Source: Candidatus Omnitrophota bacterium
GTDB lineage: Bacteria; Omnitrophota; Gorgyraeia; 2-01-FULL-45-10
DNA: 32,000 nucleotides
Reading direction: 5' to 3'
NCBI GenBank assembly: GCA_023818895.1
Contig: JAMWCX010000001.1
Span: 509,789-541,788, forward strand
Part shown: piece by piece, positions 9,533 to 30,689 of the stretch
How positions within the stretch are numbered: position 1 is the stretch's first letter
Layout: the number at the start of each line of letters is the position of its first letter
Program-made: the position numbers and the translations under genes
Notes under the pieces: model-generated
Databases searched by the model: none
Told to the model about the DNA's origin: nothing
The model's input: the letters and a program-made list of their open reading frames with translations, nothing else

Positions 9533-10671
9533 ACGGCTTCCTTTCCAAAAAGACTTTTCGCGGCGCGAATCACTTTATCCGTATCGCTGTCCGACATCAA
9601 CGGATGTACCGGAAACCTAACAAGCCGCGCCGCGATATCTTCCGTCACAGGCAAGTCTTCTTTCCTGTATCCCAGATGCTTTGTCGCGAATGGCGAACTA
9701 TGAAGGGGCACATAATGGTGCGTGCACTCTACCTGGGCTTTTTTCATATCTTCTATAAAATCCTTGCGCGAGATACCCTTGTCCAGCAAAGCCCAAAATA
9801 TATGGCCGTTGCCTGTCGATCTTTTATCCGGCTGAGGTATCTTAATATATCCTTCTTTCGCTATATCCTCGAAGGCGTCCGCATATCTTGAACATATAAC
9901 GCGACGACGTTCTGTTATAAAATCGATCTTTTTAAGTTGTCCCAGGAGTACGGCGGCAAGAACATCCGATATCACGAAACTCGAACCAACATCTATCCAT
10001 GTATACTTATCGATCTTGCCTTCGAGAAAAAGGAACCGGTTTGTCCCCTTTTCCCTTCCTATCTGCACAGCTTCACATAGAGATCTTTTATTTACAACCA
10101 GCGCCCCGCCCTCACCACATGTTATGTTCTTCGTGCTGTGGAAACTCAAACAGCCAAGATCCCCGAAGGTGCCAAGCGGCCTACCGTTGAACATAGCTCC
10201 TATCGCTTGTGCGGCATCTTCAATGACATGTATATTCTTACGCGAGGCCTCCCTTATCAAACGCTCCATGTCGCACGACAGTCCTCCATAATGTACTGGT
10301 ATAATAGCGCGAGTCTTCTTTGTAACGCGTCTCATAGCATCGTCGATATCGATATTAAGCGTGCGATCTTCTATCTCACAGAAGACAGGACGGGCGCCCT
10401 GCCTTAAAATAGCGTTGGCCGTAGAGACAAACGTAAAGCTTGGACATATAACCTCATCGCCCCGCCCTATCTCGAGAGCCATCAAAGAGAGCTCGAGCGC
10501 GTGAGTGCCGGAGGTCACAAGATACGCAAAAGCTCCTCCCAAGACCCGGCTCAAAACAGCCTCCGCCTCTTTGCAAATAACACCTTCGCCCTGTATTTTT
10601 TTATTCGCGATAGCTGCGGCTGCCGCTGCCTCTTCTTCTTTGCCGATAAATGGGACCGAATAATGTATCAT
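9517..10671 (-). CDS. PLP-dependent sugar aminotransferase, DegT/DnrJ/EryC1 family, WecE-type (dTDP-4-keto-6-deoxyhexose transaminase-like)
   Basis: Matches E. coli WecE as I recall it over long stretches: GDEVICPSFTFVSTANA, IIPVHYGG, VIEDAAQA, SFHSTKNITCGEGGALV (PLP lysine), REKGTNRFLFLEGKIDKYTWIDVGSSFVISD. The start overlaps the upstream stop as ATGA (10668-10671). Confidence 0.9.
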   Translation of the reverse strand: MIHYSVPFIGKEEEAAAAAAIANKKIQGEGVICKEAEAVLSRVLGGAFAYLVTSGTHALELSLMALEIGRGDEVICPSFTFVSTANAILRQGARPVFCEIEDRTLNIDIDDAMRRVTKKTRAIIPVHYGGLSCDMERLIREASRKNIHVIEDAAQAIGAMFNGRPLGTFGDLGCLSFHSTKNITCGEGGALVVNKRSLCEAVQIGREKGTNRFLFLEGKIDKYTWIDVGSSFVISDVLAAVLLGQLKKIDFITERRRVICSRYADAFEDIAKEGYIKIPQPDKRSTGNGHIFWALLDKGISRKDFIEDMKKAQVECTHHYVPLHSSPFATKHLGYRKEDLPVTEDIAARLVRFPVHPLMSDSDTDKVIRAAKSLFGKEAVCRRR

Positions 10672-12089
10672 GATTTGGTTTTGTCCTTTTTAAACATGCA
10701 ATAAAACGCGAAAAATGCGCCGTTTAACGCCAGTTTTAACTGTTGTAGGGATCTAATTCTTCTGGCATGCGTAAGTATCTTGGACGGTCTCAGGTAAAAT
10801 TCCCTGAAAGCCCTCTTCTGCCAGTAAATCATCCTATCCGGCTCAAGCGCCGGCAATCTGTGCACTGGTTCTGTATAGACGCCGTAATTGTCATAGTCAG
10901 TATTAAAGATAAGATTGTCGCGCAAAAGCTCCGCGTAGACATCGCTACCCGGATATGGCTTTAGTATAAGAAACTTGGCAAAATCCGGATCCAGTTCTTT
11001 CGTAAAAGTTATGGTGTCTTTGATTGTCTCCTCTGTCTCGCCGGGCAACCCAAAAATAAGAAATGCCCATGTCTCGAAACCGAGCTCTTTTGAAAGTTTG
11101 AAAGCCTTTCGGGTGACGTCAAGCGGGATGTTCTTTTTTATCCTTTTCAGTATAGCGTCGTTTCCGGATTCAACGCCGTAGCCGACCGTCTTTATTCCTA
11201 TATTCTTAAGAGCAACTAATATCTCGCGGTCGACACAATCGGCCCGCAGGCCATTCATGAATTGAAAATGCACGCCAAGATCGCGCTTTTTTACCTCATC
11301 GCAAAATTCGAGAGCGCGTTTTTTATTAAGAGTGAATATGTCATCCGCTATATGTATCTCCCTTATGCCATGCCCATTTACCAGTCCTTCTATCTCGGCG
11401 ATTATGTTCGCGACACTTCTCATACGAAACGTCTTTGAAAATATATGCTTAGTACAGCAGAAGGTACAGCTTCCCGGGCATCCTCTGGAAGTGATTATAG
11501 TCATCGCCGGTAGTCTTTCAGCGTCCGGAGGCATATACGCATCCGGTCTTTTCAGAAGGCTCCTATCCGGAAAAGGTATGGAATCGAGATCATCGATAAA
11601 AGGCCTTCTTTCTGTGGCAACCGACTTGCCGTCTTTCTTGAAATAGATACCTTTGACGCTATGGAGGCTGGGCTTTTCTTTACTAAGTTCTTCGCATAAT
11701 TGCCTTATCGTCTCTTCTCCTTCGCCAACAACCACGATATCTATATTTTCTTCGCATATCGCCTCCTGGGGCGCTATGGTAGCATGAATGCCCCCCAGAA
11801 TAACGGGAACTTCTTTTTTTAACGATTTGGAAATCTTGGCCCATCTGAGGGCATCCTTGAATGTTGGGGTAACGCTGGATATTCCCACAGTATCAGGATC
11901 AAATTCCGTGAAGAGTGTTTTAAATTTCTGCTCATCGAGCCCCTCCGTATCGATATCAGCGAAACGAACCCTGTGCCCGTCTTTTTCCAGGACTGTGCCT
12001 ATGTAAAGAACGCCGAGCGGCGGATAGGCAGGCGCCATCTTTCTACCGTAGACTTTTTCCTGAGATGGATTAATGAGAAGTATCTTCAT
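10668..12089 (-). CDS. Cobalamin (B12)-binding-domain radical SAM enzyme (class B), paralog A
   Basis: MKILLINP..., VGISSVTP, ILGGIHAT, VVVGEGE (B12-binding domain pattern), IPFPDR, TSRGCPGSCTFC (CxxxCxxC at 11457-11480), GVESGN, FGLPGET, YPGS. The track ORF extends to 12227 but those 46 codons lie inside the upstream gene. ATG at 12089 forms an ATGA overlap with the upstream stop. Confidence 0.9.
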   Translation of the reverse strand: MKILLINPSQEKVYGRKMAPAYPPLGVLYIGTVLEKDGHRVRFADIDTEGLDEQKFKTLFTEFDPDTVGISSVTPTFKDALRWAKISKSLKKEVPVILGGIHATIAPQEAICEENIDIVVVGEGEETIRQLCEELSKEKPSLHSVKGIYFKKDGKSVATERRPFIDDLDSIPFPDRSLLKRPDAYMPPDAERLPAMTIITSRGCPGSCTFCCTKHIFSKTFRMRSVANIIAEIEGLVNGHGIREIHIADDIFTLNKKRALEFCDEVKKRDLGVHFQFMNGLRADCVDREILVALKNIGIKTVGYGVESGNDAILKRIKKNIPLDVTRKAFKLSKELGFETWAFLIFGLPGETEETIKDTITFTKELDPDFAKFLILKPYPGSDVYAELLRDNLIFNTDYDNYGVYTEPVHRLPALEPDRMIYWQKRAFREFYLRPSKILTHARRIRSLQQLKLALNGAFFAFYCMFKKDKTKS

Positions 12090-13339
12090 GATTCTAAAAT
12101 AACTTCGGGTGCTTTTTTGCGTTTGTATTTTGCTTCGAGATCGTCCCTTATCTGAACTATCTGCTCTGAAGTCAGGCCAGACGTCGAGACAAGCGAACGG
12201 TATTCCCCTGGCCTTCCTTTGAACCAAGCATGTTCGTAATCATCCTTAAAATCAATGTCAAAACTTTCTTTATCCTTATAAATCAGAGAACCGGGATAAG
12301 GCGTATAGATAGTAACATCTATGTCATCGAGATCCGCCTCTTCAAGAAAAGCCGTTGTCTCATTAATGGACTGTCTATTCTCGCCCGGCAACCCTATTAT
12401 GAAGAAGCCTTTGACGCGTATCCCAAAATCATGGCACAATTTTATCGCGTCCATGTTCTTTTTTACGGACTCTCCCTTATTAACTATATCGAGTATGCGC
12501 TGGGAGCCGGACTCTATACCCACTCCGACCTCCACACAGCCAGAATCACGCATAGCCGAGATCACTTCCCTGTCCACGGTATCGGATCTTATGAAACACC
12601 TGTATATGATATCGAGTTTTTTAAGAAGCGAGCATATCCCAAGCATCCTCTTTTTATTCACAGTTATCGTATCATCAAAAAACATGAATGCCTTGTAGCC
12701 GTATCTTTTTTTGAGGTCGCTTATCTCATCATAAACGTTCTGTGGGCTGCGCATTCTAAGGGTCTTACCCCAGGCATTGTTCGCGCAGAATTTACAGCCG
12801 AAAGGACAGCCGCGCGAAGTGATAAGCGTAGTGGTCAGCTCGTCATCAAGATAATATTTGTAACTTTTTATATCTATGAGCTCGCGGTCAGGAAATGGGA
12901 TCGCATCGATATCCTTCAGGTATTCGTATCTTAAAATTCTGGCCGTTGACATACCGGCTTCTTTTGCGCGCACGATATCCAGAAACGCCTTCTCTCCCTC
13001 TCCTACAACAACGATATCCGATGGATCGTGGACATCTTCAGGTCTGCCTGATACGTGAGGGCCACCGAATACGTATAAAGCGTTAGCTGTATTATTACGC
13101 TTTTTGAGTTCTGCCGCCACTCTGTCCGCGGTGGGAAATTGCGGTGTATTTGAATAGATGCCTACTATGTCGGCGTCGATTCTTTCCGGCAGAGGCCTTT
13201 CATCATTCATATCTATTAGAGATATATCCTTATAACCGTTATTCTTTAGGTAAGCGCTTAAATAAAGAAGCCCCAACGAAGGAAAGACTTTCTCGCTTAT
13301 CAAAAACTGGGAATTTGGATTTACCAGGAGTATCTTCAT
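12086..13339 (-). CDS. Cobalamin (B12)-binding-domain radical SAM enzyme (class B), paralog B
   Basis: MKILLVNP..., VGIYSNTP, FGGPHVS, VVVGEGE, IPFPDR, TSRGCPFGCKFC, GIESGS, IGLPGEN, YPGS. Clear paralog of the genes on both sides. Confidence 0.9.
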   Translation of the reverse strand: MKILLVNPNSQFLISEKVFPSLGLLYLSAYLKNNGYKDISLIDMNDERPLPERIDADIVGIYSNTPQFPTADRVAAELKKRNNTANALYVFGGPHVSGRPEDVHDPSDIVVVGEGEKAFLDIVRAKEAGMSTARILRYEYLKDIDAIPFPDRELIDIKSYKYYLDDELTTTLITSRGCPFGCKFCANNAWGKTLRMRSPQNVYDEISDLKKRYGYKAFMFFDDTITVNKKRMLGICSLLKKLDIIYRCFIRSDTVDREVISAMRDSGCVEVGVGIESGSQRILDIVNKGESVKKNMDAIKLCHDFGIRVKGFFIIGLPGENRQSINETTAFLEEADLDDIDVTIYTPYPGSLIYKDKESFDIDFKDDYEHAWFKGRPGEYRSLVSTSGLTSEQIVQIRDDLEAKYKRKKAPEVILES

Positions 13340-13349
13340 AACCCAACCA

Positions 13350-14798
13350 CTAAGTTTCCATTTTAAAATAAACTGAATTCGCTACCAGCGAAAGGGCCTT
13401 CTTCGAATTGCCCATAGCGATATTAAAAGCTATCTTTGCGGCGACGGAAGGATTCGTTATGCCAAAATAAAGCATGTCAAATAAAAATACAGGGTTGAAT
13501 AGGTAGTTTTTTACTATATTCAGATTTGTGAATTTGCGCACATACCTCTCAAGTTCCTTTATATCAATTTCCGAAAAAGGAACGGGAGTAGCATCCTGAT
13601 GCCAGTAACGCTCTTCAGAATCCAGAACCCCCTTATTCTTTGCTTCCTCGTAGAGATCGGTACCGGGGAAAGGGGTGGTGAAATAAGCCGCATAAAAATC
13701 GGGACGAATACGCCTAAGAAGTTTTTTGGTCATCTCCAGGTCATCCACGTCTTCGCCAGGATTTCCGACCATTATAGTCGCGACCGTACGCAGACCATAC
13801 TTTCTGCATGCCTCAAATGCTCTGATCGTATCTTCGACTTTAATACCCTTCTTGAGACGGTCCAGAACTTTCTGCGAACCGGATTCGACGCCGAAATCGA
13901 CTTGTATACAGTTTGAGTTCTTTAAGAGCTTGGCATATTCATCGTCGAAGAGGTTGACTCGTGCCTGACAATTCCAAAACATTCTCGGATATTCTTTCTT
14001 TATTCTTTTGCAGAATTCAGCGACAAAATTCCTGTTGACGGTAAAGGTATCATCCATAAGCACAAGGGTTTCTATTCTATAATTCGTCACAAGAAGCGCT
14101 ATCTCGCTAAATATATGATCCATACTTCTGTAACGAACCCTTTTACCGAACATCTTATGAGCCGAGCAGAATGTACACGTAGAAGGGCATCCTCGCGAAG
14201 TCATTATCCATCCGCTTCGCGACCATCTGCCACGTATCTCGCCCCTTCTTGAGGTAAAACGTCTTCGGTCCACAAGGTGGTAAGCGGGTAAGGGCAGCTT
14301 GCTAAGATCCTCTACCGGTCCTCTCGGGCTTGTCTTTATAATCGCGCTTCCCTCTCTGTAATATACACCTAATACCGACTCAGGACTCATATTACCGCGA
14401 ATAACATCAAGAAGCTCAAGTATAGTTTCTTCCCCTTCGTATATAACCACAAAATCGGCTCCCCAACTCATAACCTCTTCAGGCATAAACGACGCATGAA
14501 CTCCACCTACTATTATCCTGCCCCGAAGGGACGACTCCCTAATCTTGCGTATCATACTTCTTACCTCGAAACGCTGGGCGGCCATGCAGGTAATTCCGAT
14601 GATGTCAGGGTCTTCATTGTGTAGATATTCGATTGTGGCATCTATTTGCTTTCCGTAATCTGCCGTCTGTGGCGCCTGAAGCTCTCTGACCTTAACCAAG
14701 CATCCTGCCGCTTCAAGAACACTTGCTATCTGCAACAGCCCGAAAGGAGGACATACAAGCTGCACGGGATTGATAAGAACGCATTTCATACCCATCAT
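13350..14798 (-). CDS. Cobalamin (B12)-binding-domain radical SAM enzyme (class B), paralog C
   Basis: MKCVLINP..., IGITCMAAQ, VGGVHAS, VIYEGEE, TSRGCPSTCTFC, GVESGS, VGNPGE, FPGT. The start is moved from 14837 to ATG at 14798, which gives an ATGA overlap with the GT4 stop (14795-14797) and has GAGGA about 9 nt upstream. Codons 14799-14837 lie inside the upstream gene. Confidence 0.9.
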   Translation of the reverse strand: MMGMKCVLINPVQLVCPPFGLLQIASVLEAAGCLVKVRELQAPQTADYGKQIDATIEYLHNEDPDIIGITCMAAQRFEVRSMIRKIRESSLRGRIIVGGVHASFMPEEVMSWGADFVVIYEGEETILELLDVIRGNMSPESVLGVYYREGSAIIKTSPRGPVEDLSKLPLPAYHLVDRRRFTSRRGEIRGRWSRSGWIMTSRGCPSTCTFCSAHKMFGKRVRYRSMDHIFSEIALLVTNYRIETLVLMDDTFTVNRNFVAEFCKRIKKEYPRMFWNCQARVNLFDDEYAKLLKNSNCIQVDFGVESGSQKVLDRLKKGIKVEDTIRAFEACRKYGLRTVATIMVGNPGEDVDDLEMTKKLLRRIRPDFYAAYFTTPFPGTDLYEEAKNKGVLDSEERYWHQDATPVPFSEIDIKELERYVRKFTNLNIVKNYLFNPVFLFDMLYFGITNPSVAAKIAFNIAMGNSKKALSLVANSVYFKMET

Positions 14799-15985
14799 GA
14801 CACCATCCTCGCAGATATCCCTTTTGCAGCAAGACACTCGTTATACAGCCTCTTGATATCCGAGACCAGTCTTTCTTTTGAGTAGATGTTTGACACAGAA
14901 ACCCTGCCACAAATTCCCATATTCCGACACAAGATCTTATCTTCCATCAGGGAGATAAGTCTTTCGGCAAAGGCAGCAAAATCACCCGACTTAACCAAAA
15001 ATCCGTTCTCCCCATCTCTAATAAGGTCCTCCACTCCGCCGACCGCGGTAGCTACTACAGGCTTGGCAGAGGCCATGGCCTCTATGATAGATACCGGCGT
15101 CCCTTCGTTGAGGGAGGTTAGTCCAACGACGTCGAGACTCTCATAGACCGAAGCCAGCTCGTCTACCCAGCCGGTAAAGATAATGTCTTGCTGGATCCCT
15201 ATCTGGGCAGCATATTCTTTGATAGAGAACTCCGACTCGCCATTACCTACCACTATAAATTTAACATTCGCATCAGGCCTCTTTTGCCGAAAATATTTAG
15301 CCGCGTCCAAAAACATCTTATGGTTCTTTATGGGAACAAGCCTTCCGACTATTCCGACAAGAAACGTTTCATCAGAGAAGCCAAGATGCTTCCTAAAAGA
15401 GCCTTTAGCGATTTCGCAATTAAGAAACCTGTCTAGTTCAAAACCAAGCGGTATAACGGCGGTTTTTGAACTTTTCACTACCCCAAGGTTCGCCACTATA
15501 TCGCCCTTGATCCTGTCGCTTACCGTAATAACCTTATCCGTAAAAAGCCCCAAGAACCTCTCGATCATAAGAAAGAGGCGCGCTTTTAATGGGCTAAAGT
15601 AGCCGTCAAATATATGTCCGTGGAAAGTATGAACCTTCACTGGAACTCTGGCTAATATAGCAGCAATTCGACCCAGCGTGCCAGCCTTTGCGGTATGGGT
15701 ATGGACAATGTCCGGCTTCTCTTTTTTTATTATCGAATAAAGTCCTATCAGCGCTTTCATATCTTTCGCAGGAGATATATCCCTTATAAGATCCTCCACG
15801 ACTATAGGATAAACTCCTTTTTCTCTAGCCAGATAAGACATGTCGCCTTCTGAGACACTTATTCTGCCGCAAACCAACACATCCTTATACGAGCCGTTCT
15901 TGTTAAGCTCGCTGGAAAGAAGCACCGTATGTATCGCCGGCCCGCCGATATTAAGCCTTGTTATTATCCTTAGGACTTTAACCAT
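14795..15985 (-). CDS. GT-B fold glycosyltransferase, family 4 (group 1)
   Basis: N-terminal RLNIGGPAIH, and C-terminal EGTPVSIIEAMASAKPVVATAVGGVEDLIRDGENGFLV containing the EX7E motif typical of GT4 retaining transferases. AAAGG lies 6-7 nt upstream of the ATG at 15985. Confidence 0.9.
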   Translation of the reverse strand: MVKVLRIITRLNIGGPAIHTVLLSSELNKNGSYKDVLVCGRISVSEGDMSYLAREKGVYPIVVEDLIRDISPAKDMKALIGLYSIIKKEKPDIVHTHTAKAGTLGRIAAILARVPVKVHTFHGHIFDGYFSPLKARLFLMIERFLGLFTDKVITVSDRIKGDIVANLGVVKSSKTAVIPLGFELDRFLNCEIAKGSFRKHLGFSDETFLVGIVGRLVPIKNHKMFLDAAKYFRQKRPDANVKFIVVGNGESEFSIKEYAAQIGIQQDIIFTGWVDELASVYESLDVVGLTSLNEGTPVSIIEAMASAKPVVATAVGGVEDLIRDGENGFLVKSGDFAAFAERLISLMEDKILCRNMGICGRVSVSNIYSKERLVSDIKRLYNECLAAKGISARMVS

Positions 15986-15986
15986 A

Positions 15987-16768: not shown

Positions 16769-16793
16769 ATCCTCACCCTTATCTGTTATCATT

Positions 16794-18641: not shown

Positions 18642-18665
18642 ACTACCCCCTATGCAAAGGATAAT

Positions 18666-18694: not shown

Positions 18695-18723
18695 GAGATT
18701 TGTCGATAAAAGGAGGTAGGATT

Positions 18724-24126: not shown

Positions 24127-24150
24127 TTTTCTCTCATTAAATTCTTATAT

Positions 24151-24906: not shown

Positions 24907-24923
24907 ATCGCCTCGTCGTAATT

Positions 24924-25787
24924 TTAAACTGCCTTATAATTCACTAGCGAAATACCGGAAGTAGCTATAGCGTCTTTCACAAGCGGGCTGAGAAGAGATG
25001 CATGTTCCCGTTCCCAGTCACATGGCCACCCGGCCAGCTTCTTCAAATGCCCGTATTTTTTCTTTATTACCTTATTATCGACACCCGGATGCACATTGAT
25101 CTCCGTTATGCCGGGCTTTATTTTTTCAATAACTCTTATTAAGTATTCCGGCCCGATCTTACCGCTTTTAAAAAATCCAACAAGAAAATCAGGGGTCCTG
25201 AATCCTGATTTTCTGAACGGGCAAGAGGCCATGACAAAAACCGAAAAGGCAACCTTTTTAAGATCCTCAAAGCTGAAATCAAACCACGGTATGTTCAGCC
25301 CTCTTATCCTGGTTATACCGAATTTGTTCAGCACCGGCTTTATGGCCTTAAATACTGGCCGGAGGGCATGTATATGCTGATGGCTATCTACGTGTGTTGG
25401 CAATATGCCACTTTCCACAACCCTTGTCAGCTGTTCTTCGCACTCTATAGCTATATGCTCCATGTCAATCAGTCCCGCGCATATTTTTGAAAATAATTCC
25501 ATATGGCTTCTGAATAACATGCCGTCTTTGCCCACTATCGTTTTTATCTTTTTTGGATCTGCCAGCGGCCGTTCTCCGACAAGTGTAAGATGAATACCCA
25601 CACCAAGCCCCCTGTTTCTTGCGGCAATCTTTACAGCGTGGTCAAAACTATCACCGCAAGCTACAAGAGAGGCATTTGTAATAACACCCTTGCAGTATCC
25701 TATCTCGATGGATTCGTTTATAGATTCATGCAAGCCAAAATCATCAGCTGATATTATAAATCTTTTTTTTCGCTCTTCTTGCGGCAT
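24924..25787 (-). CDS. YdjC/ChbG-family carbohydrate deacetylase (NaxD/LgmC/HpnK-like)
   Basis: FIISADDFGLHESINESI (the DDFG catalytic region of the YdjC family), GVGIHLTL, HVDSHQHIH (metal-binding His cluster). About 287 aa, typical for the family. Confidence 0.85.
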   Translation of the reverse strand: MPQEERKKRFIISADDFGLHESINESIEIGYCKGVITNASLVACGDSFDHAVKIAARNRGLGVGIHLTLVGERPLADPKKIKTIVGKDGMLFRSHMELFSKICAGLIDMEHIAIECEEQLTRVVESGILPTHVDSHQHIHALRPVFKAIKPVLNKFGITRIRGLNIPWFDFSFEDLKKVAFSVFVMASCPFRKSGFRTPDFLVGFFKSGKIGPEYLIRVIEKIKPGITEINVHPGVDNKVIKKKYGHLKKLAGWPCDWEREHASLLSPLVKDAIATSGISLVNYKAV

Positions 25788-25789
25788 AC

Positions 25790-26752
25790 CTATATATTTT
25801 CTTTCGCCGAATCTTCTTTTACTATAAATATGGGGCGCTTTTTTGTCTGCTCATAAATTCGTCCGACGTATTCCCCCAGTACTCCTACGGCCATAAGTTG
25901 GACGCTGCCCAAAAAACAGACTGCCATTATAAGATCTGTCCATCCGGGCGGCATCGGTATGCGCACTATTCTCAGAATTTTCAGGATCCATATGCCAATA
26001 ACTATCATAAGGTAGAGCGAGGAAAAGAAAAATATTATAAGCGAGAAGAGCATTATAAGGTGGAGCGGATACCTGCCGAATGAGAATATGCCGTCGAGCG
26101 CCAGATGATATAGACTCCTGTAAGAAAATTTCGGCTTTCCGGCATGTCGCTTTTCTACATTGTACGGTATCCCCTCCTGTCTGAAGCCGAGCCACCTTAC
26201 CTGACCTCTAAGGAACTTATGGCACTCCGGCATATCTAGGATAAGTTTCAATATTTTTTTGTCGATCAGCCTGAAATCGGACTGGCCGAACTCAAGAGAA
26301 AGCCCTGAGATCTTCGATATGAACCAGTACGAAGCCCTTACTATAAAACCCTTTATCGGGTCGATGTTTGCATCCTGTTTAGTGGTATAAACCACGTCCA
26401 CCCCCTCACGCCAGCGCTTCACCATCTCCGGGATCAGCGAAGGCGGATGCTGCAGGTCGGCATCCATCGTTATTATGGCGTCACCTTCTGCCTTACCCAG
26501 CCCGGCAAAAAGCGCGACCTGGTGGCCGAAGTTCCGCGAAAAAGAGAGATACCGAACATTGGGATCTGCTGCGCGAACCTTTTTTACGACGTCGAGAGAT
26601 CCATCCGAACTGCCATCGTCAACAAAGATCATTTCGTAGTCAAGATTAGCCTGATGACATACCTCGCGGACTTGGTTATAAAGCTCTTCTATATTATCTT
26701 TTTCGTTAAATACCGGAAATACTATAGAAATTCTTGTTTTTTTCTCTGTCAT
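25790..26752 (-). CDS. Polyprenyl-phosphate glycosyltransferase, GT2 (ArnC/GtrB/FlmF2-like) with two C-terminal TM helices
   Basis: ISIVFPVFNEKDNIEEL, FVDDGSSDGS, TMDADLQHPP. Two C-terminal helices end in GEYVGRIYEQTKKRPIFIV, the characteristic ArnC/GtrB tail. The track start (26872) overlaps the upstream gene. I prefer ATG at 26752 (MTEKKTRISIVFPVFNE), with AAAGG upstream. ATG at 26782 is an alternative. Confidence 0.9.
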   Translation of the reverse strand: MTEKKTRISIVFPVFNEKDNIEELYNQVREVCHQANLDYEMIFVDDGSSDGSLDVVKKVRAADPNVRYLSFSRNFGHQVALFAGLGKAEGDAIITMDADLQHPPSLIPEMVKRWREGVDVVYTTKQDANIDPIKGFIVRASYWFISKISGLSLEFGQSDFRLIDKKILKLILDMPECHKFLRGQVRWLGFRQEGIPYNVEKRHAGKPKFSYRSLYHLALDGIFSFGRYPLHLIMLFSLIIFFFSSLYLMIVIGIWILKILRIVRIPMPPGWTDLIMAVCFLGSVQLMAVGVLGEYVGRIYEQTKKRPIFIVKEDSAKENI

Positions 26753-26795
26753 ATATAATGAGCCTTTCGGTTTAGATAACATTACAAAAACGAGT

Positions 26796-28208
26796 TTACG
26801 ATTCTGAAAATAGCCGTCGATAATCAACAAGGGAGTGCGCCAACCCGAACCTTGTGCGTATTTCTGATGCATCTACCGTAACGCGGAAAGATTGCAGCAG
26901 CTCATTCGATAATTTATCATACGCAACATGCTTCACGCCGCTGATACCATCTAGGTCAACATAGGAAGAATAGTCGGGGTGTTTCAACTGCACAACCGGA
27001 CGGCCCATCAAAAGCGCCTCTTCCATCACCGTCGTGCTCATCCCGATAACAATTTTAGCACCGGCTAGGTCTGAATATAAAGGATCGCCATTTGACACGG
27101 TAATCATACCGCTAACCTTGCCGCGATCTACCCATCTCTTCAACTTTCTGTTAAGATCCGCATGTGAATGCATCCTTAATCGGAGCCGCACCGGCAAACC
27201 ACCTTTATTAACTAACTGGCGCAATGAACTTACAACGGCCTCGTTATCAAAACGCGCGAGTCCAGAAACAAACAGATAATATCCGTTATCCTGATCGACC
27301 GGTCCAGGCTCAACAGACTTCCATTCTTTATACCGGCAACTGCACCCCATCAGAAACGTGGTATTTGGAAAATACGGCGCCAAAAGATCAACAACTCTCC
27401 TCTCAAATGCATAAAAAACATCGGGTAACATCAGACCCTGTGCTATCTCTTCCGGATAGGGAAAATACCATCGCTTATCACTGGAAACGGACGCGTGCTG
27501 AATGGTGTATGTCCTTATCTTGCGCTTAGATGCAAAACGCCAGACAACTCTCGCATAAGAATGCATCTCGTGGATACACCCGATCTTTTTTATGGGATAC
27601 TGTTCGGTAATCTCGGATAATATGCGCTCGAGATAAAGATTCCTAAGCCATTGCATGCTGAAAACCCAGGAGCACCATTCGAGTAAAATCAATATTTTAC
27701 TGTAAAGTTTTCCGGGTATTTTAAAAAATGCTTCAACGCCGCAGCACATCATAATACCCATTATCCTCAGGGCGCAGAATGCTGATATCGGCACAAACGG
27801 CTTAGCATTAGCACCACAGTGTTGAACTGGGCCGATAACAAGTAAGGCGTCATCATCAGCGGTATCCACATACTTTGTTTTATAGCTGCATTTTCCTGAA
27901 GGATATCCGCATTCAGAGGTGATTATCAATATGCTGTCCTTTATCTTCCCGTACAATCCATACCCCAATCTTGGCGGATGAAATACTCGTAAAAATCCTT
28001 TTAGCATACCTGCTCCTGATAAAAGCAGCAGCTGTAATAATAATTTGAAAGGATGCCGCTGCCTATAGCTACGGTGCCACAGATTGGACGCATCGGGACT
28101 CCTAGTACTTACACTGGATGAAAATACCAACGACACAACGTCTCTAGGCACCAAAGTGGCCACAGTAGCAACAAATCTAGCAGCCAATTGCTCAATATCA
28201 ACTTTCAT
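26796..28208 (-). CDS. Hypothetical 470-aa protein; the C-terminal region weakly resembles the nucleotide-sugar-binding half of GT-B enzymes
   Basis: Long uninterrupted ORF, co-directional and tightly packed. Only AKIVIGMSTTVMEEALLMGRPVVQL looks familiar (GxST...EA...G.PVV, as in GT-B / capsule-synthesis proteins). The N-terminal two thirds match nothing I recognise. Confidence 0.55.
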   Translation of the reverse strand: MKVDIEQLAARFVATVATLVPRDVVSLVFSSSVSTRSPDASNLWHRSYRQRHPFKLLLQLLLLSGAGMLKGFLRVFHPPRLGYGLYGKIKDSILIITSECGYPSGKCSYKTKYVDTADDDALLVIGPVQHCGANAKPFVPISAFCALRIMGIMMCCGVEAFFKIPGKLYSKILILLEWCSWVFSMQWLRNLYLERILSEITEQYPIKKIGCIHEMHSYARVVWRFASKRKIRTYTIQHASVSSDKRWYFPYPEEIAQGLMLPDVFYAFERRVVDLLAPYFPNTTFLMGCSCRYKEWKSVEPGPVDQDNGYYLFVSGLARFDNEAVVSSLRQLVNKGGLPVRLRLRMHSHADLNRKLKRWVDRGKVSGMITVSNGDPLYSDLAGAKIVIGMSTTVMEEALLMGRPVVQLKHPDYSSYVDLDGISGVKHVAYDKLSNELLQSFRVTVDASEIRTRFGLAHSLVDYRRLFSES

Positions 28209-28234
28209 TTACTATATTCCACGAGCCAGAGCTA

Positions 28235-29167
28235 CTACTCTACGATTTCCTGGTAGGTGGTAGAAACCCGTTTGACTCGTTCTGTAATGTCGAATTTCGA
28301 ATTATATATCATGACATTCGATTTATCCATATTCCTCTGGTCGCATTTTTCACAAATCAGTCCGCTGCTCTCAAAATCTCCGGTAGTATGGCAATGAACT
28401 ATCTTTTTATAAATAGGCGAATCAAATATCTCCCTCAAGGTCTGACTCTTTAGGTCCCCTAGCGTAAGCTTGCCATTAAAATCAAAACAACACATATTAA
28501 CGGTTCCGTCTACCTGTATTTGAAGCGGCCCCTTGAATGGCCTACCGCATGTAGGCACTAATTTATCTTGCACCTTTCTGTATTCTTTACCATATACCCA
28601 ATTATGCGGTCTCCATACCTCTATTAGATCTGCTTTATCTTTCCAGTATTCAATCCATTGTTTTTCATCATCTTCATTAACGCCTTTTTCTACATTGTAA
28701 GTTAATAATATCTTTGTATTCCTGCGTGCCCGGCATATCTCTGTTAAGGTATTCTTAATATTATTAAACGCATAAGGATCCTCTATGCCGTGGATCTTAT
28801 TATAAACAGTAGGGGAATTTCCGTAGAAGCTTACCCTTATAGATATAACACCGAGATCGTTAAATTGTCGAAACTTTTCCATAGTCAATAATGAAGCGTT
28901 GGTCAAAATAAGGGCTTTCATGCCTCTTTTAGTGGCATACTCTATTTTTTGAATCAGCGTAGGATCTAGCATTGGCTCGCCAAATCCCGAAAAGGTGCAA
29001 GCACTATACTGATCTGTCTCGTTAGTTATCCTATCCAACAAGAATTTAAAAGTCTCGAGACTCATTAACTCCAGGCGTCGCATAAGAGCCCTACGGCAGC
29101 ATATGGTGCAATTGTAATTACAATTAGTGGTAACCTCAAACCTTATTTCGCTGTTTTTTGGTATCAT
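28235..29167 (-). CDS. Radical SAM enzyme with SPASM/twitch-type auxiliary cluster domain
   Basis: EVTTNCNYNCTIC (CxxxCxxC), FSGFGEPML. C-terminal CGRPFKGPLQIQVDGTVNMCC (C-x13-G-x4-C) and CEKC. GGGGTGA lies 8 nt upstream of the ATG. Confidence 0.85.
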   Translation of the reverse strand: MIPKNSEIRFEVTTNCNYNCTICCRRALMRRLELMSLETFKFLLDRITNETDQYSACTFSGFGEPMLDPTLIQKIEYATKRGMKALILTNASLLTMEKFRQFNDLGVISIRVSFYGNSPTVYNKIHGIEDPYAFNNIKNTLTEICRARRNTKILLTYNVEKGVNEDDEKQWIEYWKDKADLIEVWRPHNWVYGKEYRKVQDKLVPTCGRPFKGPLQIQVDGTVNMCCFDFNGKLTLGDLKSQTLREIFDSPIYKKIVHCHTTGDFESSGLICEKCDQRNMDKSNVMIYNSKFDITERVKRVSTTYQEIVE

Positions 29168-29183
29168 TGTCTATTCACCCCAT

Positions 29184-30689
29184 TTAATGCGATTTAAACA
29201 CTTTATGCAATAAGGCAAAAAGCCAGTCTCTCCACCTCCCGCTCTTTTCACAGAGTCTCACCAGAGGATAAAGAACCTTGGGACTCTTACGATATAGGCT
29301 GAACGTCTTTGCCAGACCAACAATCTCAGATGGCGACAGCTGAGGCATGTTCAAGCAGGTCTTTGTATAATCATAATTCTCACAATCATTTTTCATGAAC
29401 CCTGCCTTAACCGCCATATCTCTTATAGAAGTACCTTCCCACGGTTGAAGTATCATAACACTTGAGTTCTGTGCCCTCGCCTTTCTGTTAAGCTCGATTG
29501 TCTGAAAAACATCTTCTCTAGTTTCAAAAGGTATACCCAACATATTCAAAGTACTCGTCCTTATACCGTGCTTATTTAGGATAGATATTCCTTCTATTAT
29601 CTGATCATTTGTCATATTTCTATTTAAAATTTCCCTGCGTATACGTTCATTTCCCGACTCAATTCCAGCAGATACGTTAACACAACCCATCTCTTTTAGA
29701 AGCCGCGCCTTACGATCTGTCACTGTATCTAATCGTGCGGTAATAAGAAAAGGCAGGCCTATTCTCTTATAGCTTTCGGCAAACTGCTCCAACTCATCCT
29801 CTGTATATAGGAAAAACTCCTCATCCCAGAACTTCAACATCTCCAAATTATATCTTTCTTTGAGAGTTGCTATCTCATCTATCGCGCGAGGTATAGTCTT
29901 TTTGCGGAAATAGCGCCCCTTTCCTTTGTATAGCTGCTGCAATCGTTCATTAATACAATAGGAGCATCTATGGGGGCAGCCTCGCGAGAGCTCCAGATGG
30001 CCGTATCGATATACTTTACCGCAAAACGGTTTGAAAAAATGTCGCTTATCATAAAGGCTCCAATCCGGGAACGGAAGCGTATCAAGGTCTTCAAGCGGCC
30101 CGATTTCGTTCTTAACGACTCCGGAAGATGTCTTTACCCAAAGATTAGGAATTCTGTCATATGGCCTTCCTTCCTCAAGGCTAACACATAAATTACGGAA
30201 TGGCGTCTCCCCCTCGCCGATGCAAACAATATCAATATTTTTGTTATCGATAAACTTTTCAGGATTCATAGTCACGCATTTGCCGCCAACAGCCACTACA
30301 CTATCCTTATCCGAAATGCTGTTTATAATCTCAATTGCAAGCGGATAGTTATAGGCGGTCGGAATGGTAACTGCAATAAGCCGGGGATTATATTGCTTCA
30401 CTTTAGTATTGAAATCGCGGAGATAATCACGCGATTCCCTAATAACTCCAAATTTTTTCATATCAACTGGGAGAAATTCTCCAACCTTCTCGTTCTTTTT
30501 TCGGTCTTCATACTCAGTGGTCTTATAATAAGTCGTGTCGAATATATCGACTGGGAATTTTTCATTACGAGCTACCGCGATAAGCGATGAAAGTCCAATT
30601 GGGAGGAAGCCCTCAATTCCAGACATTGGATTCACAAATAGTATTTTTGTGGCACGATTTTCAGTTTTTCCCAGTGTAACTTGTCTCAT
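29184..30689 (-). CDS. Cobalamin (B12)-binding-domain radical SAM enzyme (class B), paralog E
   Basis: KILFVNPMSG, IAVTIPTAYN, VGGKCVT, VCIGEGE, LPFPDWS, LSRGCPHRCSYC, GIESGN, LGIPFET. More diverged than paralogs A-D. Confidence 0.88.
   Translation of the reverse strand: MRQVTLGKTENRATKILFVNPMSGIEGFLPIGLSSLIAVARNEKFPVDIFDTTYYKTTEYEDRKKNEKVGEFLPVDMKKFGVIRESRDYLRDFNTKVKQYNPRLIAVTIPTAYNYPLAIEIINSISDKDSVVAVGGKCVTMNPEKFIDNKNIDIVCIGEGETPFRNLCVSLEEGRPYDRIPNLWVKTSSGVVKNEIGPLEDLDTLPFPDWSLYDKRHFFKPFCGKVYRYGHLELSRGCPHRCSYCINERLQQLYKGKGRYFRKKTIPRAIDEIATLKERYNLEMLKFWDEEFFLYTEDELEQFAESYKRIGLPFLITARLDTVTDRKARLLKEMGCVNVSAGIESGNERIRREILNRNMTNDQIIEGISILNKHGIRTSTLNMLGIPFETREDVFQTIELNRKARAQNSSVMILQPWEGTSIRDMAVKAGFMKNDCENYDYTKTCLNMPQLSPSEIVGLAKTFSLYRKSPKVLYPLVRLCEKSGRWRDWLFALLHKVFKSH

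Follow-up and report, generated by a model that had tools for sequence, protein, structure and literature searches.

Radical SAM enzymes in variable decoration modules of a surface-glycan locus: a probable role in sugar tailoring in a Candidatus Omnitrophota MAG

Why should seven of the 29 genes of a single surface-glycan locus encode radical SAM (rSAM) enzymes? The question was raised by an earlier note on a 32-kb stretch of DNA from a Candidatus Omnitrophota MAG (the window, i.e., the whole stretch that was analysed), which had counted five B12-domain and two SPASM/twitch-type rSAM genes, and all seven were recovered at their positions on the minus strand. The genes of the locus (28 open reading frames and the 3′ end of an ABC exporter) all lie on that strand and are tightly packed, with intergenic gaps of no more than 82 nt throughout and with 11 overlapping junctions when the longest reading frame is taken for each gene, or 10 with the revised start of a GT2 gene (see below). 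The explanation that we favor, and which taken as a whole, lipid-linked tailoring included, appears somewhat more probable than its alternatives together, is that a conserved backbone has received insertions of strain-variable decoration modules, with the seven rSAMs being the sugar-tailoring enzymes of these modules.

The conserved backbone consists of WecA, a GT4 transferase, a GT1–DUF218 fusion, a DUF4330 protein, a Wzy_C ligase-like gene and the ABC exporter. The gene run ends with the O-antigen ligase/polymerase-like membrane protein (1..1066; Pfam Wzy_C 70.2 bits, with weak NCBIfam matches to PEP_O_lig_1 and RfaL), whose 3′ end is outside the window, and is preceded by the initiating enzyme, a WecA/MraY-family polyprenyl-phosphate HexNAc-1-phosphate transferase (1098..2135; Pfam Glycos_transf_4 119.5 bits; NCBIfam ECA_wecA 120.6 bits, under the cut-off; the NCBI naming points the same way). 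In the middle are the GT4 (GT-B) transferase (14795..15985; Pfam Glycos_transf_1 136 bits; 59% identical to its counterpart in L008, a related Omnitrophota locus), the DUF4330 protein (16271..16792; 63.7 bits) and the GT1(GT-B)–DUF218 fusion (16794..18641; DUF218 80.4 bits, Glyco_trans_1_4 43 bits). Between GT4 and DUF4330 is a 95-aa reading frame (15987..16274) for which Pfam and NCBIfam searches were blank; an unmatched frame of 93–136 aa occupies the same place in L008 and in the sister locus L094. At the right end, translation gave the 3′ end of a fused ABC_membrane and ABC_tran exporter (31690..32000), which is complete in L003 (ABC_tran 119.3 bits, ABC_membrane 63.5 bits).

Five of the rSAM proteins matched both B12-binding (PF02310) and Radical_SAM (PF04055) above the gathering score: 10668..12089 (Radical_SAM 86.3 bits), 12086..13339, 13350..14798 (95.9 bits), 22600..24126 and 29184..30689 (91.3 bits), with B12-binding scores, in that order, of 83.0, 54.1, 83.5, 52.7 and 38.5 bits, where the cut-off is 32.1. 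Each carries one CxxxCxxC motif, that of the first being CPGSCTFC, and for this protein an ATG start at 12089 was favored over a TTG at 12227. The paralogs share only 24–34% identity and so do not stem from a recent tandem amplification; the most divergent is 29184..30689, with 24–28% identity to the other four. The two remaining enzymes are 28235..29167 (Radical_SAM 47.8 bits, SPASM 39.9 bits; weak PDB sequence matches to BtrN, BlsE and DesII) and 19622..20725 (Radical_SAM 104.5 bits; 55% identical in L008; PDB sequence neighbours SkfB, PqqE and BlsE). In the latter, SPASM was sub-threshold (19.9 bits, cut-off 21.5), which together with C-terminal cysteines at 281, 300, 335, 338 and 340 marks it as twitch-like. 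NCBIfam cut-offs were reached by none of the seven.

The rSAM genes were described as interleaved on one strand with glycosyltransferases, four methyltransferases, a deacetylase and an aminotransferase, and profile matches bear this out: their neighbours include WecA, Wzy_C, GT2, GT4 and GT-C transferases. The methyltransferase-like genes are 7089..7895 (Methyltransf_11 76.2 bits), 7896..8771 (Methyltransf_23 33.9 bits), 24151..24906 (Methyltransf_23 50.1 bits), all three of class I, and 30731..31693, a NanM-like putative sugar O-methyltransferase (NCBIfam TIGR04371 70.9 bits, cut-off 44). The deacetylase is of the YdjC family and HpnK/NaxD-like (24924..25787; Pfam YdjC 180.3 bits, NCBIfam HpnK 148.4 bits below a cut-off of 232.6, and YdjC-family matches in the PDB), and the aminotransferase is a WecE-type nucleotide-4-keto-6-deoxyhexose 4-aminotransferase (9517..10671; Pfam DegT_DnrJ_EryC1 322.5 bits), which scored 420.9 bits against NCBIfam PRK11706, the dTDP-4-amino-4,6-dideoxygalactose transaminase (cut-off 375). 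It had been proposed from an apparent lack of the usual deoxysugar toolkit that radical chemistry takes the place of polar chemistry in much of the sugar tailoring here. The lack is partial: profile searches of the window gave zero matches to RmlC (dTDP_sugar_isom), hexapeptide acyltransferase and formyltransferase families, and RmlD_sub_bind only as a weak secondary match on an extended SDR of the nucleotide-sugar dehydratase/epimerase/decarboxylase type (2144..3130; Pfam GDP_Man_Dehyd and Epimerase; NCBIfam LegB 173, RmlB 159 and UDP-xylose synthase 156 bits, none of which reaches its cut-off). With this SDR, the aminotransferase, YdjC and four class-I methyltransferases all present, replacement is not supported; the radical enzymes add to polar chemistry.

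How unusual this density is can be judged from related loci, found by anchoring on the GT1–DUF218 gene and not on any rSAM, and annotated through their resemblance to proteins of the window and a rough count based on hydropathy rather than with curated models. The anchor is highly conserved: its confirmed relatives in metagenomes number 513, of which the best 80 show 46–65% identity. Among those 80, rSAM-like genes averaged 0.6 per 10 kb (0–6 per locus), against 3.5 per 10 kb in the window; the 13 related loci that span 18 kb or more had 0, 0, 0, 0, 0, 1, 1, 1, 2, 2, 3, 3 and 6. If rSAM genes are taken to make up 3% of the genome, an assumed and not a measured share, seven among 29 genes greatly exceeds the chance expectation (binomial P = 1.9e-5); even at 7%, the average measured in the relatives, P is 3e-3. 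The density is therefore high, yet not unique: the window is at the top of the range, but L094 has nearly the same layout and equally dense arrays occur in other lineages (e.g., L031 and L084), so that the earlier note overstated how anomalous the locus is. Literature searches found no characterised O-antigen system that accounts for such an arrangement.

Simple versions of the locus, with the order GT1–DUF218, DUF4330, SDR, GT4, WecA, WzyC, contain no rSAM, which makes the rSAM genes part of variable accessory modules. Two of the three rSAM-bearing segments are low in GC (0.39–0.40 vs. 0.44–0.455 elsewhere), among them the segment holding 29184..30689; the accessory segment 4304–9532 has a GC of 0.391 vs. 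~0.45. That the rSAM genes functionally belong to the glycan locus is supported by the shared strand, overlapping frames, synteny within the Omnitrophota (L008, L094), association across phyla and gene fusions. The Omnitrophota loci L008 and L009 keep the same gene order with proteins 45–73% identical, and in L094 the same three B12-rSAMs again stand in tandem, ahead of aminotransferase, GT2 and two methyltransferases, with the L094 ortholog of accessory 10668..12089 scoring 843 bits; the third of the three, 13350..14798, is likewise accessory. The second, 12086..13339, is the one kept at the same position in other Omnitrophota (69% identical, after GT4, in L008), and of its ~70 homolog clusters (57–73% identity) all those with a taxon name are Omnitrophota.

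The best-resolved module (26752 to 20729) has the order GtrB-type polyprenyl-phosphate sugar synthase, YdjC, methyltransferase, B12-rSAM and GT-C. The synthase is a GT2 (25790..26752) with full-length homology to GtrB (PDB 5EKP, E 2.5e-71) and ArnC (8VXH, E 1.7e-40), NCBIfam scores of 269.8 (PgfS) and 153 bits (ArnC) and C-terminal TM helices predicted in its orthologs; its start is probably Met41 at 26752, not 26872. A methyltransferase at the position of 24151..24906 is also found in L007, L008, L010 and L094. The GT-C (20729..22603; PMT_2-like, 35.2 bits vs. a cut-off of 26.1; NCBI name ‘glycosyltransferase family 39’) overlaps the upstream rSAM by 4 nt, and its orthologs come after the rSAM in L008, L010, L012 and L094. 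The rSAM itself, 22600..24126 (AF2 pLDDT 88, class-B rSAM fold), has full-length orthologs in several phyla, at up to 73% identity and about 35–56% in other phyla, on contigs labelled Omnitrophota, Elusimicrobiota, Nitrospirota, Nitrosomonadaceae, Nitrospina, Parcubacteria and Rhodospirillaceae. A GT-C-like membrane protein (at least 450 aa and at least seven predicted TM helices) was within two genes of 14 of 18 orthologs, compared with 19 of 141 other B12-rSAMs; proteins of this kind make up 5.7% of all ORFs. Ten of these neighbours were tested, and six matched PMT_2, two matched DUF2079 and two gave no match. A GtrB-like GT2 is usually directly upstream, YdjC or DegT aminotransferases are present in 12 of the 18 loci, and the association of GtrB-like GT2, B12-rSAM and GT-C repeats across phyla. 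At the C-terminus, members of the family share a conserved hydrophobic helix (KD19 = 2.5 at residue 468 of the window protein) that comes after an SGGGVxSLPKRWY motif, usually contains a central K/R-R pair and is absent from the other four B12-rSAMs of the window. Some family members are fused to a DUF2334/polysaccharide-deacetylase-like domain (P0123, P0291, L017), a class-I methyltransferase (P0293, P0311, P0329, P0396) or a flippase-like LPG_synthase_TM domain (P0327). The fusion partners mirror the adjoining genes.

The most likely reading of this module is that a lipid-linked amino sugar is tailored by rSAM enzymes before its periplasmic transfer. The GT2 (25790) would load HexNAc onto polyprenyl phosphate and YdjC (24924) would free the amine; the modified donor would then be flipped, and GT-C 20729..22603 would attach the sugar to a periplasmic acceptor, for which the WecA-primed glycan, lipid A-core or protein are candidates. 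No GtrA/ArnEF-type flippase was recognisable in the window. Tailoring of a lipid-linked sugar has precedents: the YdjC-family NaxD deacetylates undecaprenyl-P-GalNAc (PMC11279074), three-component GT-C systems make use of auxiliary epimerases (PMC11127046), and the HpnI, HpnK, HpnJ sequence combines GT2, YdjC deacetylase and rSAM (PMC13459092). Swappable decoration modules of this kind suggest a radical chemistry, as yet unstudied, that acts on sugar donors bound to the membrane.

A second GT-C, which is PMT_2/ArnT-like (4304..6073; PMT_2 45.4, PMT 34.7 bits), seems to be supplied likewise by a second module (14798 to 4304). This module contains three B12-rSAMs, the WecE-type aminotransferase, two methyltransferases and a short dolichol/polyprenyl-phosphate sugar synthase-like GT2 (8768..9532), whose top PDB sequence match is the Pyrococcus Dol-P-Man synthase 5MLZ (E 8.6e-15, residues 5–230), followed by GtrB and ArnC. 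Both SPASM/twitch rSAMs are in comparable GT2 or GT-C neighbourhoods. Alternatively, B12-rSAMs other than 22600 may act on soluble nucleotide sugars, since only one of the five has the hydrophobic helix; furthermore, in Brocadiales a distant homolog of 12086 is surrounded by enzymes of nucleotide-sugar metabolism (GFO_IDH_MocA, formyltransferase, DegT), and there is no GT-C in its vicinity. Other genes of the locus are GT2 transferases at 6077..7117 (Glycos_transf_2 108 bits) and 18724..19617 (46.5 bits; 53% identical in L008), a GDSL/SGNH hydrolase or acyl-transfer protein (3127..4317; Lipase_GDSL_2 52.3 bits) and a 470-aa protein with no Pfam match (26796..28208), modelled by AF2 at pLDDT 91.4 with a divergent GT-B-like fold (Foldseek aligned it with GT-B transferases and 2-epimerases, TM 0.3–0.4); in L093, an rSAM of the SPASM type and of the size of 28235..29167 is two genes upstream of the homolog of this 470-aa protein.

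As to the reaction, C-methylation is our leading but tentative guess, with deoxygenation, oxidation or epimerisation conjectured behind it. Methylases (MgmA/QCMT, TsrM, TokK, CysS), the ring-contracting OxsB and the diol dehydratase AprD4 matched about equally in sequence and fold, AprD4 having the highest TM-score, and no sequence or fold comparison separated methylases from the other chemistries. A methylated or rearranged sugar product is plausible. The domain match suggests that the B12-type rSAMs may depend on cobalamin; no cobalamin riboswitch was found in the window. A Pfam B12-binding match is no proof of cobalamin binding, and AprD4 has a B12-binding-type domain yet is not known to use cobalamin. 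An association with anaerobes, also put forward in the earlier note, fits the host but not the wider family, as homologs of rSAM 22600 (about 36–48% identity) are found on contigs labelled Nitrosomonadaceae, Nitrospina, Nitrospiraceae and Rhodospirillaceae.

The 29 genes of the window all lie on the minus strand, as 28 complete or nearly complete open reading frames (ORFs) and the 3′ end of an ABC exporter gene; no gap between them exceeds 82 nt, and with every gene taken at its longest ORF, 11 junctions overlap. Read 5′ to 3′ on that strand, with families assigned by Pfam and NCBIfam, the order begins with this exporter (ABC_membrane and ABC_tran) and a NanM-like sugar O-methyltransferase, followed by a radical SAM (rSAM) protein with a B12-binding domain (B12-rSAM, 29184-30689), a SPASM rSAM (28235-29167), a 470-aa protein without a family assignment (26796-28208), a GtrB/ArnC-like GT2 (25790-26752), a YdjC deacetylase (24924-25787, 180.3 bits), a methyltransferase, a further B12-rSAM (22600-24126), a GT-C (20729-22603) and a twitch-like rSAM (19622-20725). 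It continues with a GT2, a GT1-DUF218 fusion gene (16794-18641), a DUF4330 protein, a 95-aa ORF without a family (15987-16274), a GT4, three adjacent B12-rSAMs (13350-14798, 12086-13339 and 10668-12089), a WecE-type aminotransferase, a short GT2, two methyltransferases, another GT2 and a second GT-C (4304-6073), and it ends with a GDSL/SGNH protein, an SDR, WecA (Glycos_transf_4, 119.5 bits) and a Wzy_C ligase-like protein (70.2 bits). Both GT-C assignments are Pfam ones (PMT_2 35.2 bits for 20729-22603; PMT_2 45.4 and PMT 34.7 bits for 4304-6073). With an initiating phosphoglycosyltransferase, GT2, GT4 and GT1 genes, Wzy_C and an ABC exporter, this is the gene content of an O-antigen or surface-glycan locus, and no Wzx was found among the window ORFs. 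No RNA family reached the Rfam gathering threshold in the window, which is hence without a cobalamin riboswitch; no tRNA genes were found, and promoter and terminator scans gave background levels only. The GC content is 0.391 for 4304-9532 and 0.398 for 28235-31693, as against 0.44-0.455 elsewhere in the window. Since these segments coincide with accessory genes (the GT-C at 4304, GT2s and methyltransferases in the one; the SPASM rSAM, the fifth B12-rSAM and the NanM-like methyltransferase in the other), their composition suggests that they are horizontally exchanged cassettes.

The seven rSAM genes that the earlier note had listed are all real by their Pfam domain matches and motifs, and they lie where that note had placed them. 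The five B12-rSAMs each carry one CxxxCxxC motif, a radical SAM domain (PF04055, 80-107 bits) and, N-terminally, a Rossmann-type B12-binding domain (PF02310; 83.0, 54.1, 83.5, 52.7 and 38.5 bits against a cut-off of 32.1), with both domains above the Pfam gathering scores; for two of them the better starts are ATG 12089, rather than a longer TTG ORF at 12227, and ATG 14798, rather than a GTG ORF at 14837. On these domains the five are members of the class-B rSAM superfamily, with cobalamin use a prediction. The protein at 28235-29167 has a bona fide SPASM domain (PF13186, 39.9 bits against 21.5), whereas that at 19622-20725 is called twitch-like or partial because its SPASM match is sub-threshold (19.9 bits against 21.5) and it has five C-terminal cysteines. 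Pairwise identities among the five B12-rSAM paralogs are only 24-34%, which marks them at the sequence level as old, distinct lineages and not as a recent amplification. A recent tandem duplication of the adjacent 13350, 12086 and 10668 was considered and ruled out, these being 27-34% identical and each having a separate ortholog in the sister locus L094.

None of the seven proteins reaches the cut-off of any named NCBIfam family. The five B12-rSAMs score 112-199 bits against the hopanoid enzyme HpnJ (TIGR03471, equivalog cut-off 577.6) and 85-231 bits against BchE, the anaerobic Mg-protoporphyrin cyclase (TIGR02026, cut-off 481.35), so that both lie far off; where JGI homologs are labelled "BchE", this is a generic transfer of annotation. 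No hopanoid context genes (shc, hpnH, hpnI) were found in the window. MgmA, TsrM, TokK, CysS and OxsB can all be aligned to the AF2 model of 22600, whose highest TM-scores in Foldseek are to AprD4 (TMq 0.68-0.69, TMt 0.76), a close structural neighbour that we take to be cobalamin-free although its domain is similar. Because methylases (MgmA/QCMT 9CCB, TsrM, TokK, CysS), the ring-contracting OxsB and the sugar 1,2-diol dehydratase AprD4 are all sequence or fold neighbours, with similar scores in the PDB sequence search and in Foldseek, a functional call on the rSAMs was withheld. C-methylation is tentatively ranked first, with deoxygenation, oxidation and epimerisation as live alternatives; most characterised class-B enzymes are methylases (PMC12931638).

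The earlier note had also described the rSAM content as a locus-level anomaly. Seven rSAM genes among 29 are indeed improbable by chance (P = 1.9e-5 at an assumed rSAM share of 3% of genes, 3e-3 at 7%, the share among ORFs of the relatives of the locus), and the window stands at the upper end of the counts, but the pattern itself is recurrent. Two surveys led to this view. The first was anchored on a non-rSAM gene, GT1-DUF218, and covered the best 80 of 513 confirmed metagenome-contig relatives (46-65% identical), which were annotated by similarity to window proteins and a crude hydropathy count, with Pfam spot checks. These 80 loci hold 51 rSAM-like genes in 847 kb and 733 ORFs, i.e., 0.60 per 10 kb or 7% of ORFs, with at least one in 29 of the 80; the 13 loci of at least 18 kb contain 0, 0, 0, 0, 0, 1, 1, 1, 2, 2, 3, 3 and 6, compared with 7 in 20 kb of the window. 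Six is the count of L094, whose anchor is the closest (65% identity) and whose layout is nearly identical to that of the window, with the same three tandem B12-rSAMs followed by the aminotransferase, GT2 and two methyltransferases, and with one additional B12-rSAM that precedes the anchor. The rSAM-free versions of the locus consist of GT1-DUF218, DUF4330, SDR, GT4, WecA and WzyC. Together with L094 and the range of counts from 0 to 6, they point to a conserved backbone and to variable inserts as the carriers of the rSAM genes; of the three segments with rSAM genes in the window, two are lower in GC than the rest. The second survey, anchored on the rSAM itself among GTDB species representatives, yielded comparably dense loci: an Omnitrophota locus (L031) where a stretch of 16 genes holds five B12-rSAMs, one SPASM-type rSAM and two Peptidase_U32 genes beside DUF2079 and PMT_2 membrane proteins, a Bathyarchaeota locus (L084) with seven B12-rSAMs among 13 genes and a Planctomycetota locus (L083) with five. 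Here and below, taxon labels of related contigs and loci are those of the MAG records.

The strikingly conserved GT1-DUF218 fusion (16794-18641) forms, with DUF4330 and the GT4, the invariant core of the locus. The slot between DUF4330 and the GT4, which holds the 95-aa ORF here, is occupied by unmatched ORFs in the Omnitrophota relative L008 (136 aa) and in L094 (93 aa).

The best-resolved part of the window is the module that runs from the GT2 at 26752 to the GT-C at 20729. The GT2 can be aligned along its entire length to GtrB, a polyisoprenyl-phosphate glycosyltransferase (5EKP, E 2.5e-71, residues 42-353), and also to ArnC (E 1.7e-40). Its longest ORF (25790-26872) overlaps the upstream gene by 77 nt, but homology begins at residue 42 and Met41 (26752) opens a typical GT2 N-terminus (MTEKKTRISIVFPVFNE), so that the true gene is probably 25790-26752, of 320 aa like the L008 ortholog, and the overlap then disappears. 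The YdjC deacetylase (24924-25787) is located between an ArnC-like GT2 and an ArnT-like GT-C, the latter (20729-22603) having no detectable sequence relative in the PDB. No small flippase family of the GtrA, ArnE/F or SMR type was matched by Pfam in any window ORF; the donor flippase may be encoded elsewhere, or the ABC exporter may serve as a substitute. In the Elusimicrobiota loci L020 (8867-9985) and L021 (8839-10000), two tandem genes of ~183 aa with 2-4 predicted transmembrane segments (TM) lie directly upstream of the 22600 ortholog; the one protein checked matches no Pfam family, and no counterpart of the two exists in the window. These could be an ArnE/F-like donor flippase pair.

What sets rSAM 22600 (22600-24126) apart is the consistency of its surroundings. 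It has more than 900 homologs at E <1e-20, the full-length matches listed being 42%-73% identical. In a profile search of 1.84 billion cluster representatives, in which the superfamily totals 85,764 representatives at 50% identity, ~40 clusters (50% identity) from at least six bacterial phyla match the full profile, C-terminus included, at 400 bits or more. The contigs of its orthologs are labelled Omnitrophota, Elusimicrobiota, Nitrospirota (Nitrospiraceae, Thermodesulfovibrio), Nitrosomonadaceae, Nitrospina, Parcubacteria and Rhodospirillaceae; the carriers of the cassette include L016, a Nitrospiraceae genome, and L023, which bears the label Nitrospina sp. 32_T5. Very consistently, a GtrB-like GT2 lies directly upstream and a protein of 480-620 aa with 7-10 predicted TM directly downstream, or, in three loci (L015, L016 and L018), adjoining the rSAM on the opposite strand. 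Such a membrane protein is found at most two genes away from 14 of the 18 orthologs of 22600 and from 19 of the 141 other B12-rSAMs in the same loci, and makes up 5.7% of all ORFs; ten of these neighbours were checked, giving six PMT_2, two DUF2079 and two without a match. An Elusimicrobia locus (L007) has the five module genes of the window in another order, namely rSAM, PMT_2, methyltransferase, YdjC and GT2. Loci of the family that lack YdjC have DegT aminotransferases, with one or the other present in 12 of 18, and an amino sugar is the common denominator.

The family also carries a feature of its own at the C-terminus, where a conserved SGGGVxSLPKRWY motif is followed by a hydrophobic helix, usually with a central K/R-R pair. 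For the protein of the window the KD19 value of this helix is 2.5, and most orthologs lie at 1.1-2.25. The segment forms a single long terminal helix (residues 466-507) in the AF2 model of 22600 (pLDDT 88.3), and no comparable hydrophobic helix was found in the other four B12-rSAMs, the YdjC protein or the methyltransferase of the window. Domain fusions within the family mirror the neighbouring genes of the window: a C-terminal DUF2334/polysaccharide-deacetylase-like domain (P0123, P0291 and in L017), a class-I methyltransferase at either the N- or the C-terminus (P0293, P0329, P0311, P0396) and, in P0327, a C-terminal LPG_synthase_TM domain, named in Pfam for the TM region of lysyl-phosphatidylglycerol synthase. 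That the deacetylase comes from two unrelated folds, as a YdjC neighbour or as a CE4-like fusion, speaks for a coupling of deacetylation to the radical step.

Several homologs depart from this architecture. In P0314 (650 aa) an intein (Intein_splicing, 46.5 bits) separates the B12-binding domain from the radical SAM domain, and eight proteins of 1,800-2,700 aa (P0312, P0315, P0323, P0335, P0336, P0359, P0370 and P0403) contain two to six B12-rSAM-like stretches each, which fits the report of giant Omnitrophota proteins that include radical SAM and glycosyltransferase modules (bioRxiv 10.64898/2026.06.07.730766). In three marine loci labelled Rhodospirillaceae (L004-L006, 11667-14177), the 22600 ortholog is followed by a membrane protein of 818-836 aa instead of a PMT_2-type GT-C, with an MFS-like N-terminus and a spermine/spermidine-synthase domain.

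The most far-reaching reading, to which we give somewhat less than an even chance, is that the 22600-type proteins are a widespread and so far uncharacterised family of membrane-associated, cobalamin-type rSAMs that act on polyprenyl-phosphate amino sugars between a GtrB-type synthase and a GT-C. In the mechanism proposed for the window, which we consider somewhat more likely than not, the GT2 at 25790 would make a polyprenyl-phosphate-linked HexNAc, from which YdjC would remove the acetyl group, much as NaxD, of the YdjC family, deacetylates undecaprenyl-phosphate-GalNAc (PMC11279074). The lipid-linked amino sugar would then be modified by the methyltransferase and the rSAM at the cytoplasmic membrane face, the donor would be flipped, and the GT-C would pass the modified sugar to a periplasmic acceptor. 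The proposed order is drawn from enzyme classes, gene order, conservation, the fusions and the presence of the hydrophobic helix. It has its models in three-component glycosylation, in which auxiliary enzymes diversify the donor (PMC11127046), and in the HpnI, HpnK, HpnJ sequence of hopanoid biosynthesis (PMC13459092). An HpnJ-style ring contraction by 22600 was considered for the YdjC and rSAM pairing and down-weighted, as the HpnJ score is far below cut-off; on chemical grounds it would also be unlikely, since a carbocycle provides no glycosyl-phosphate donor for the GT-C.

A different and rather unlikely, though serious, reading is that the rSAMs work in the cytoplasm and tailor soluble, nucleotide-activated sugars that have yet to be transferred to lipid, the adjacency of GtrB-like synthase and GT-C reflecting only a shared pathway. 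DesII and the classical deoxysugar enzymes act on such sugars, and soluble substrates are used by all the sugar-acting rSAMs that we know of (GenK, AprD4, BtrN, DesII). The typical position of the 22600-family gene, between a lipid-phosphate sugar synthase and a GT-C, speaks against it, as do the conserved helix and the member fused to a flippase-like TM domain, whereas four of the five B12-rSAMs of the window lack a membrane-anchoring helix. Enzymes are likewise found on either side: the operon includes a WecE-type aminotransferase and an SDR, both nucleotide-sugar enzymes, and a Brocadiales homolog of 12086 lies between GFO_IDH_MocA, formyltransferase and DegT genes, but NaxD-type YdjC enzymes use an undecaprenyl-phosphate-linked sugar.

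It is improbable that the rSAMs modify something other than a sugar, either a polyprenyl or membrane lipid (by methylation or cross-linking, in hopanoid-, ladderane- or tetraether-like chemistry) or a ribosomal peptide (RiPP). Such chemistry is well known for B12-rSAMs (PMC12931638, PMC13459092), and the top NCBIfam matches include HpnJ, HpnR, the ladderane lipid rSAM, Tes, and ApyD and rSAM_ocin_1 from RiPP pathways, but all of them are superfamily-level matches far below cut-off (85-231 bits against 280-775). Both the RiPP and the lipid readings were rejected on gene context, as the window, with its short gaps, has no squalene/hopene, lipid-synthesis, precursor-peptide, protease or leader-recognition genes, and it is carbohydrate enzymes that recur as conserved neighbours and as fusion partners. 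That abundant rSAM genes merely happen to lie here, functionally unlinked to the glycan genes, is scarcely credible in spite of the size of the superfamily and of dense B12-rSAM arrays without recognised glycan genes (L084 and L083), for the density is improbable by chance, reading frames overlap, and synteny kept across genomes and phyla, with fusions that tie the rSAM to deacetylase-like, methyltransferase and flippase-like domains, argues strongly against it.

Each part of the module has relatives among known systems. As in the three-component systems (GtrB/GtrA/Gtr* of Shigella and Salmonella; pentofuranose systems, Kelly et al. 2024, PMC11127046), a GT2 polyprenyl-phosphate synthase and a GT-C occur in an O-antigen-type locus, auxiliary enzymes would diversify the lipid-linked donor, and the modules are strain-variable in the manner of seroconversion cassettes. 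Unlike those systems, the window has no recognisable GtrA-type flippase, and its auxiliaries are YdjC, a class-I methyltransferase and a B12-rSAM instead of SDR or DprE epimerases; in the literature searched, no rSAM is described in a three-component glycosylation system. The lipid A hexosamine and Ara4N pathways (Francisella FlmF2-NaxD-FlmK and Bordetella LgmABC, as we take these genes to be named, and ArnA-B-C-D-T) share the ArnC-like GT2, the Und-P-sugar deacetylase and the ArnT/PMT_2-like GT-C, but in the window a methyltransferase and an rSAM stand between deacetylation and transfer. The enzyme-class logic of hopanoid HpnI (GT2), HpnK (YdjC) and HpnJ (B12-rSAM) is identical, with GlcNAc placed onto the lipid, deacetylated by YdjC and followed by rSAM action on the lipid-linked glucosamine (PMC13459092). 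HpnK and HpnJ are among the best NCBIfam matches, yet they remain far below cut-off (148 against 233 and 112-199 against 578); the GT2 is GtrB/ArnC-like, with GtrB, ArnC and PgfS but not HpnI among its matches, hopanoid genes are absent and a GT-C follows. Finally, the rSAMs of aminoglycoside and deoxysugar pathways (GenK, GenD1, Fms7, AprD4, BtrN, DesII) carry out C-methylation, deoxygenation, oxidation and deamination of amino sugars with or without cobalamin, and among solved structures BtrN, BlsE and DesII come closest to the SPASM-type proteins of the window. These enzymes act on soluble intermediates of secondary metabolism, in contrast to an envelope glycan with a lipid-phosphate donor and a GT-C, and identity is only 15-18%.

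The O-antigen-type locus, GtrB/GT-C periplasmic glycosylation, NaxD/Arn-type donor tailoring and the class-B and SPASM rSAMs are therefore all of known kinds. As far as the literature searched shows, no earlier description exists of rSAMs as conserved parts of a GtrB/GT-C module, or of several such modules stacked in one surface-glycan locus. Searches combining rSAM or B12 with O-antigen, undecaprenyl, GT-C, polyprenyl phosphate or polysaccharide gene clusters returned nothing relevant, and none of the words sugar, glycan and polysaccharide occurs in a 2026 review on B12-rSAM enzymes.

Glycosylation by a GtrB-type synthase and a GT-C is a general route of diversification for O-antigens, teichoic acids, lipid A and glycoproteins, and to our knowledge the known diversification of the lipid-linked donor is polar (deacetylation, deformylation, epimerisation). 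If the far-reaching reading is true, a radical step, e.g., C-alkylation or deoxygenation at an unactivated sugar carbon, is added to periplasmic glycosylation, and the Omnitrophota lineage stacks such modules, building surface glycans with heavy alkylation that have so far gone undescribed. A conserved rSAM step would be a class of reaction new to envelope biogenesis, would assign a function within the very large and mostly unassigned B12-rSAM superfamily, and would predict new sugar structures in little-known phyla such as Omnitrophota, Elusimicrobiota and Nitrospirota; the cassette of GtrB-like GT2, rSAM and GT-C is compact enough for testing by heterologous expression. The variation from 0 to 6 rSAM genes among otherwise syntenic loci suggests that the modules drive surface antigenic diversity, which may matter for phage and predator-prey interactions of the ultra-small, possibly host-attached Omnitrophota.

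The region of the three adjacent B12-rSAMs (14798 to 4304) looks like a second, Arn-type donor-tailoring module, on less evidence than the first, and its rSAMs may use nucleotide sugars. The rSAM at 12086-13339 is the one conserved at its position in other Omnitrophota; in L008 it is 69% identical, with a PMT-type GT-C directly after it, and its ~70 homolog clusters at 57-73% identity are Omnitrophota wherever a taxon is named. Two further B12-rSAMs flank it in the window and in L094, and downstream follow the WecE-type aminotransferase, a short GT2 whose best solved relative (5MLZ, E 8.6e-15) is a dolichol-phosphate mannose synthase, a pair of methyltransferases, another GT2 and the second GT-C (4304-6073). 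Its further likenesses to the Arn pathway are an ArnB-like DegT aminotransferase and an SDR like the C-terminal part of ArnA. More distant homologs of 12086 occur in Brocadiales, among GFO_IDH_MocA, rSAM, formyltransferase, GT, DegT and methyltransferase genes, and in another Omnitrophota genome among rSAM, GT and two methyltransferase genes. The claim of the earlier note that the polar deoxysugar toolkit is absent was overstated in this respect, as the aminotransferase matches the NCBIfam dTDP-4-amino-4,6-dideoxygalactose transaminase (420.9 bits, cut-off 375) and the SDR is an extended one of the 4,6-dehydratase/decarboxylase/epimerase type; it holds for RmlC, hexapeptide acyltransferases and formyltransferases, which have no match among the window ORFs, and RmlD_sub_bind appears merely as a weak secondary match on the SDR.

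The remaining rSAMs recur in settings of their own. Relatives of 19622 (19622-20725) are found beside short GT2s and PMT_2-type proteins in five loci (L008, L020, L021, L031 and L034). The SPASM rSAM at 28235-29167 precedes the 470-aa protein (26796-28208), and a homolog of this protein in an otherwise classical Nitrospirae O-antigen locus (L093, with Wzx and RmlA- and RmlC-like genes) has, two genes upstream, a SPASM rSAM equal in size to that of the window. The 470-aa protein matches no Pfam family and in NCBIfam reaches only 19 bits, to the LIC13510 surface-carbohydrate family; its AF2 model (pLDDT 91.4) weakly resembles GT-B glycosyltransferases and UDP-GlcNAc 2-epimerases (TM 0.3-0.4). 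Its homologs (36-49% identity) are labelled Nitrospirae, Omnitrophota and Brocadia and in L092 and L007 lie near CMP-sugar-type cytidylyltransferases, and it may represent an undescribed transferase family. In the dense Omnitrophota locus L031 (MAG JBAXLM010000007.1, 4823-19160), the five B12-rSAMs are interleaved with the two Peptidase_U32 genes and followed by DUF2079, PMT_2 and the SPASM-type rSAM. U32 proteins include O2-independent hydroxylases, and by analogy this pairing may serve the anaerobic hydroxylation and alkylation of a glycan or lipid.
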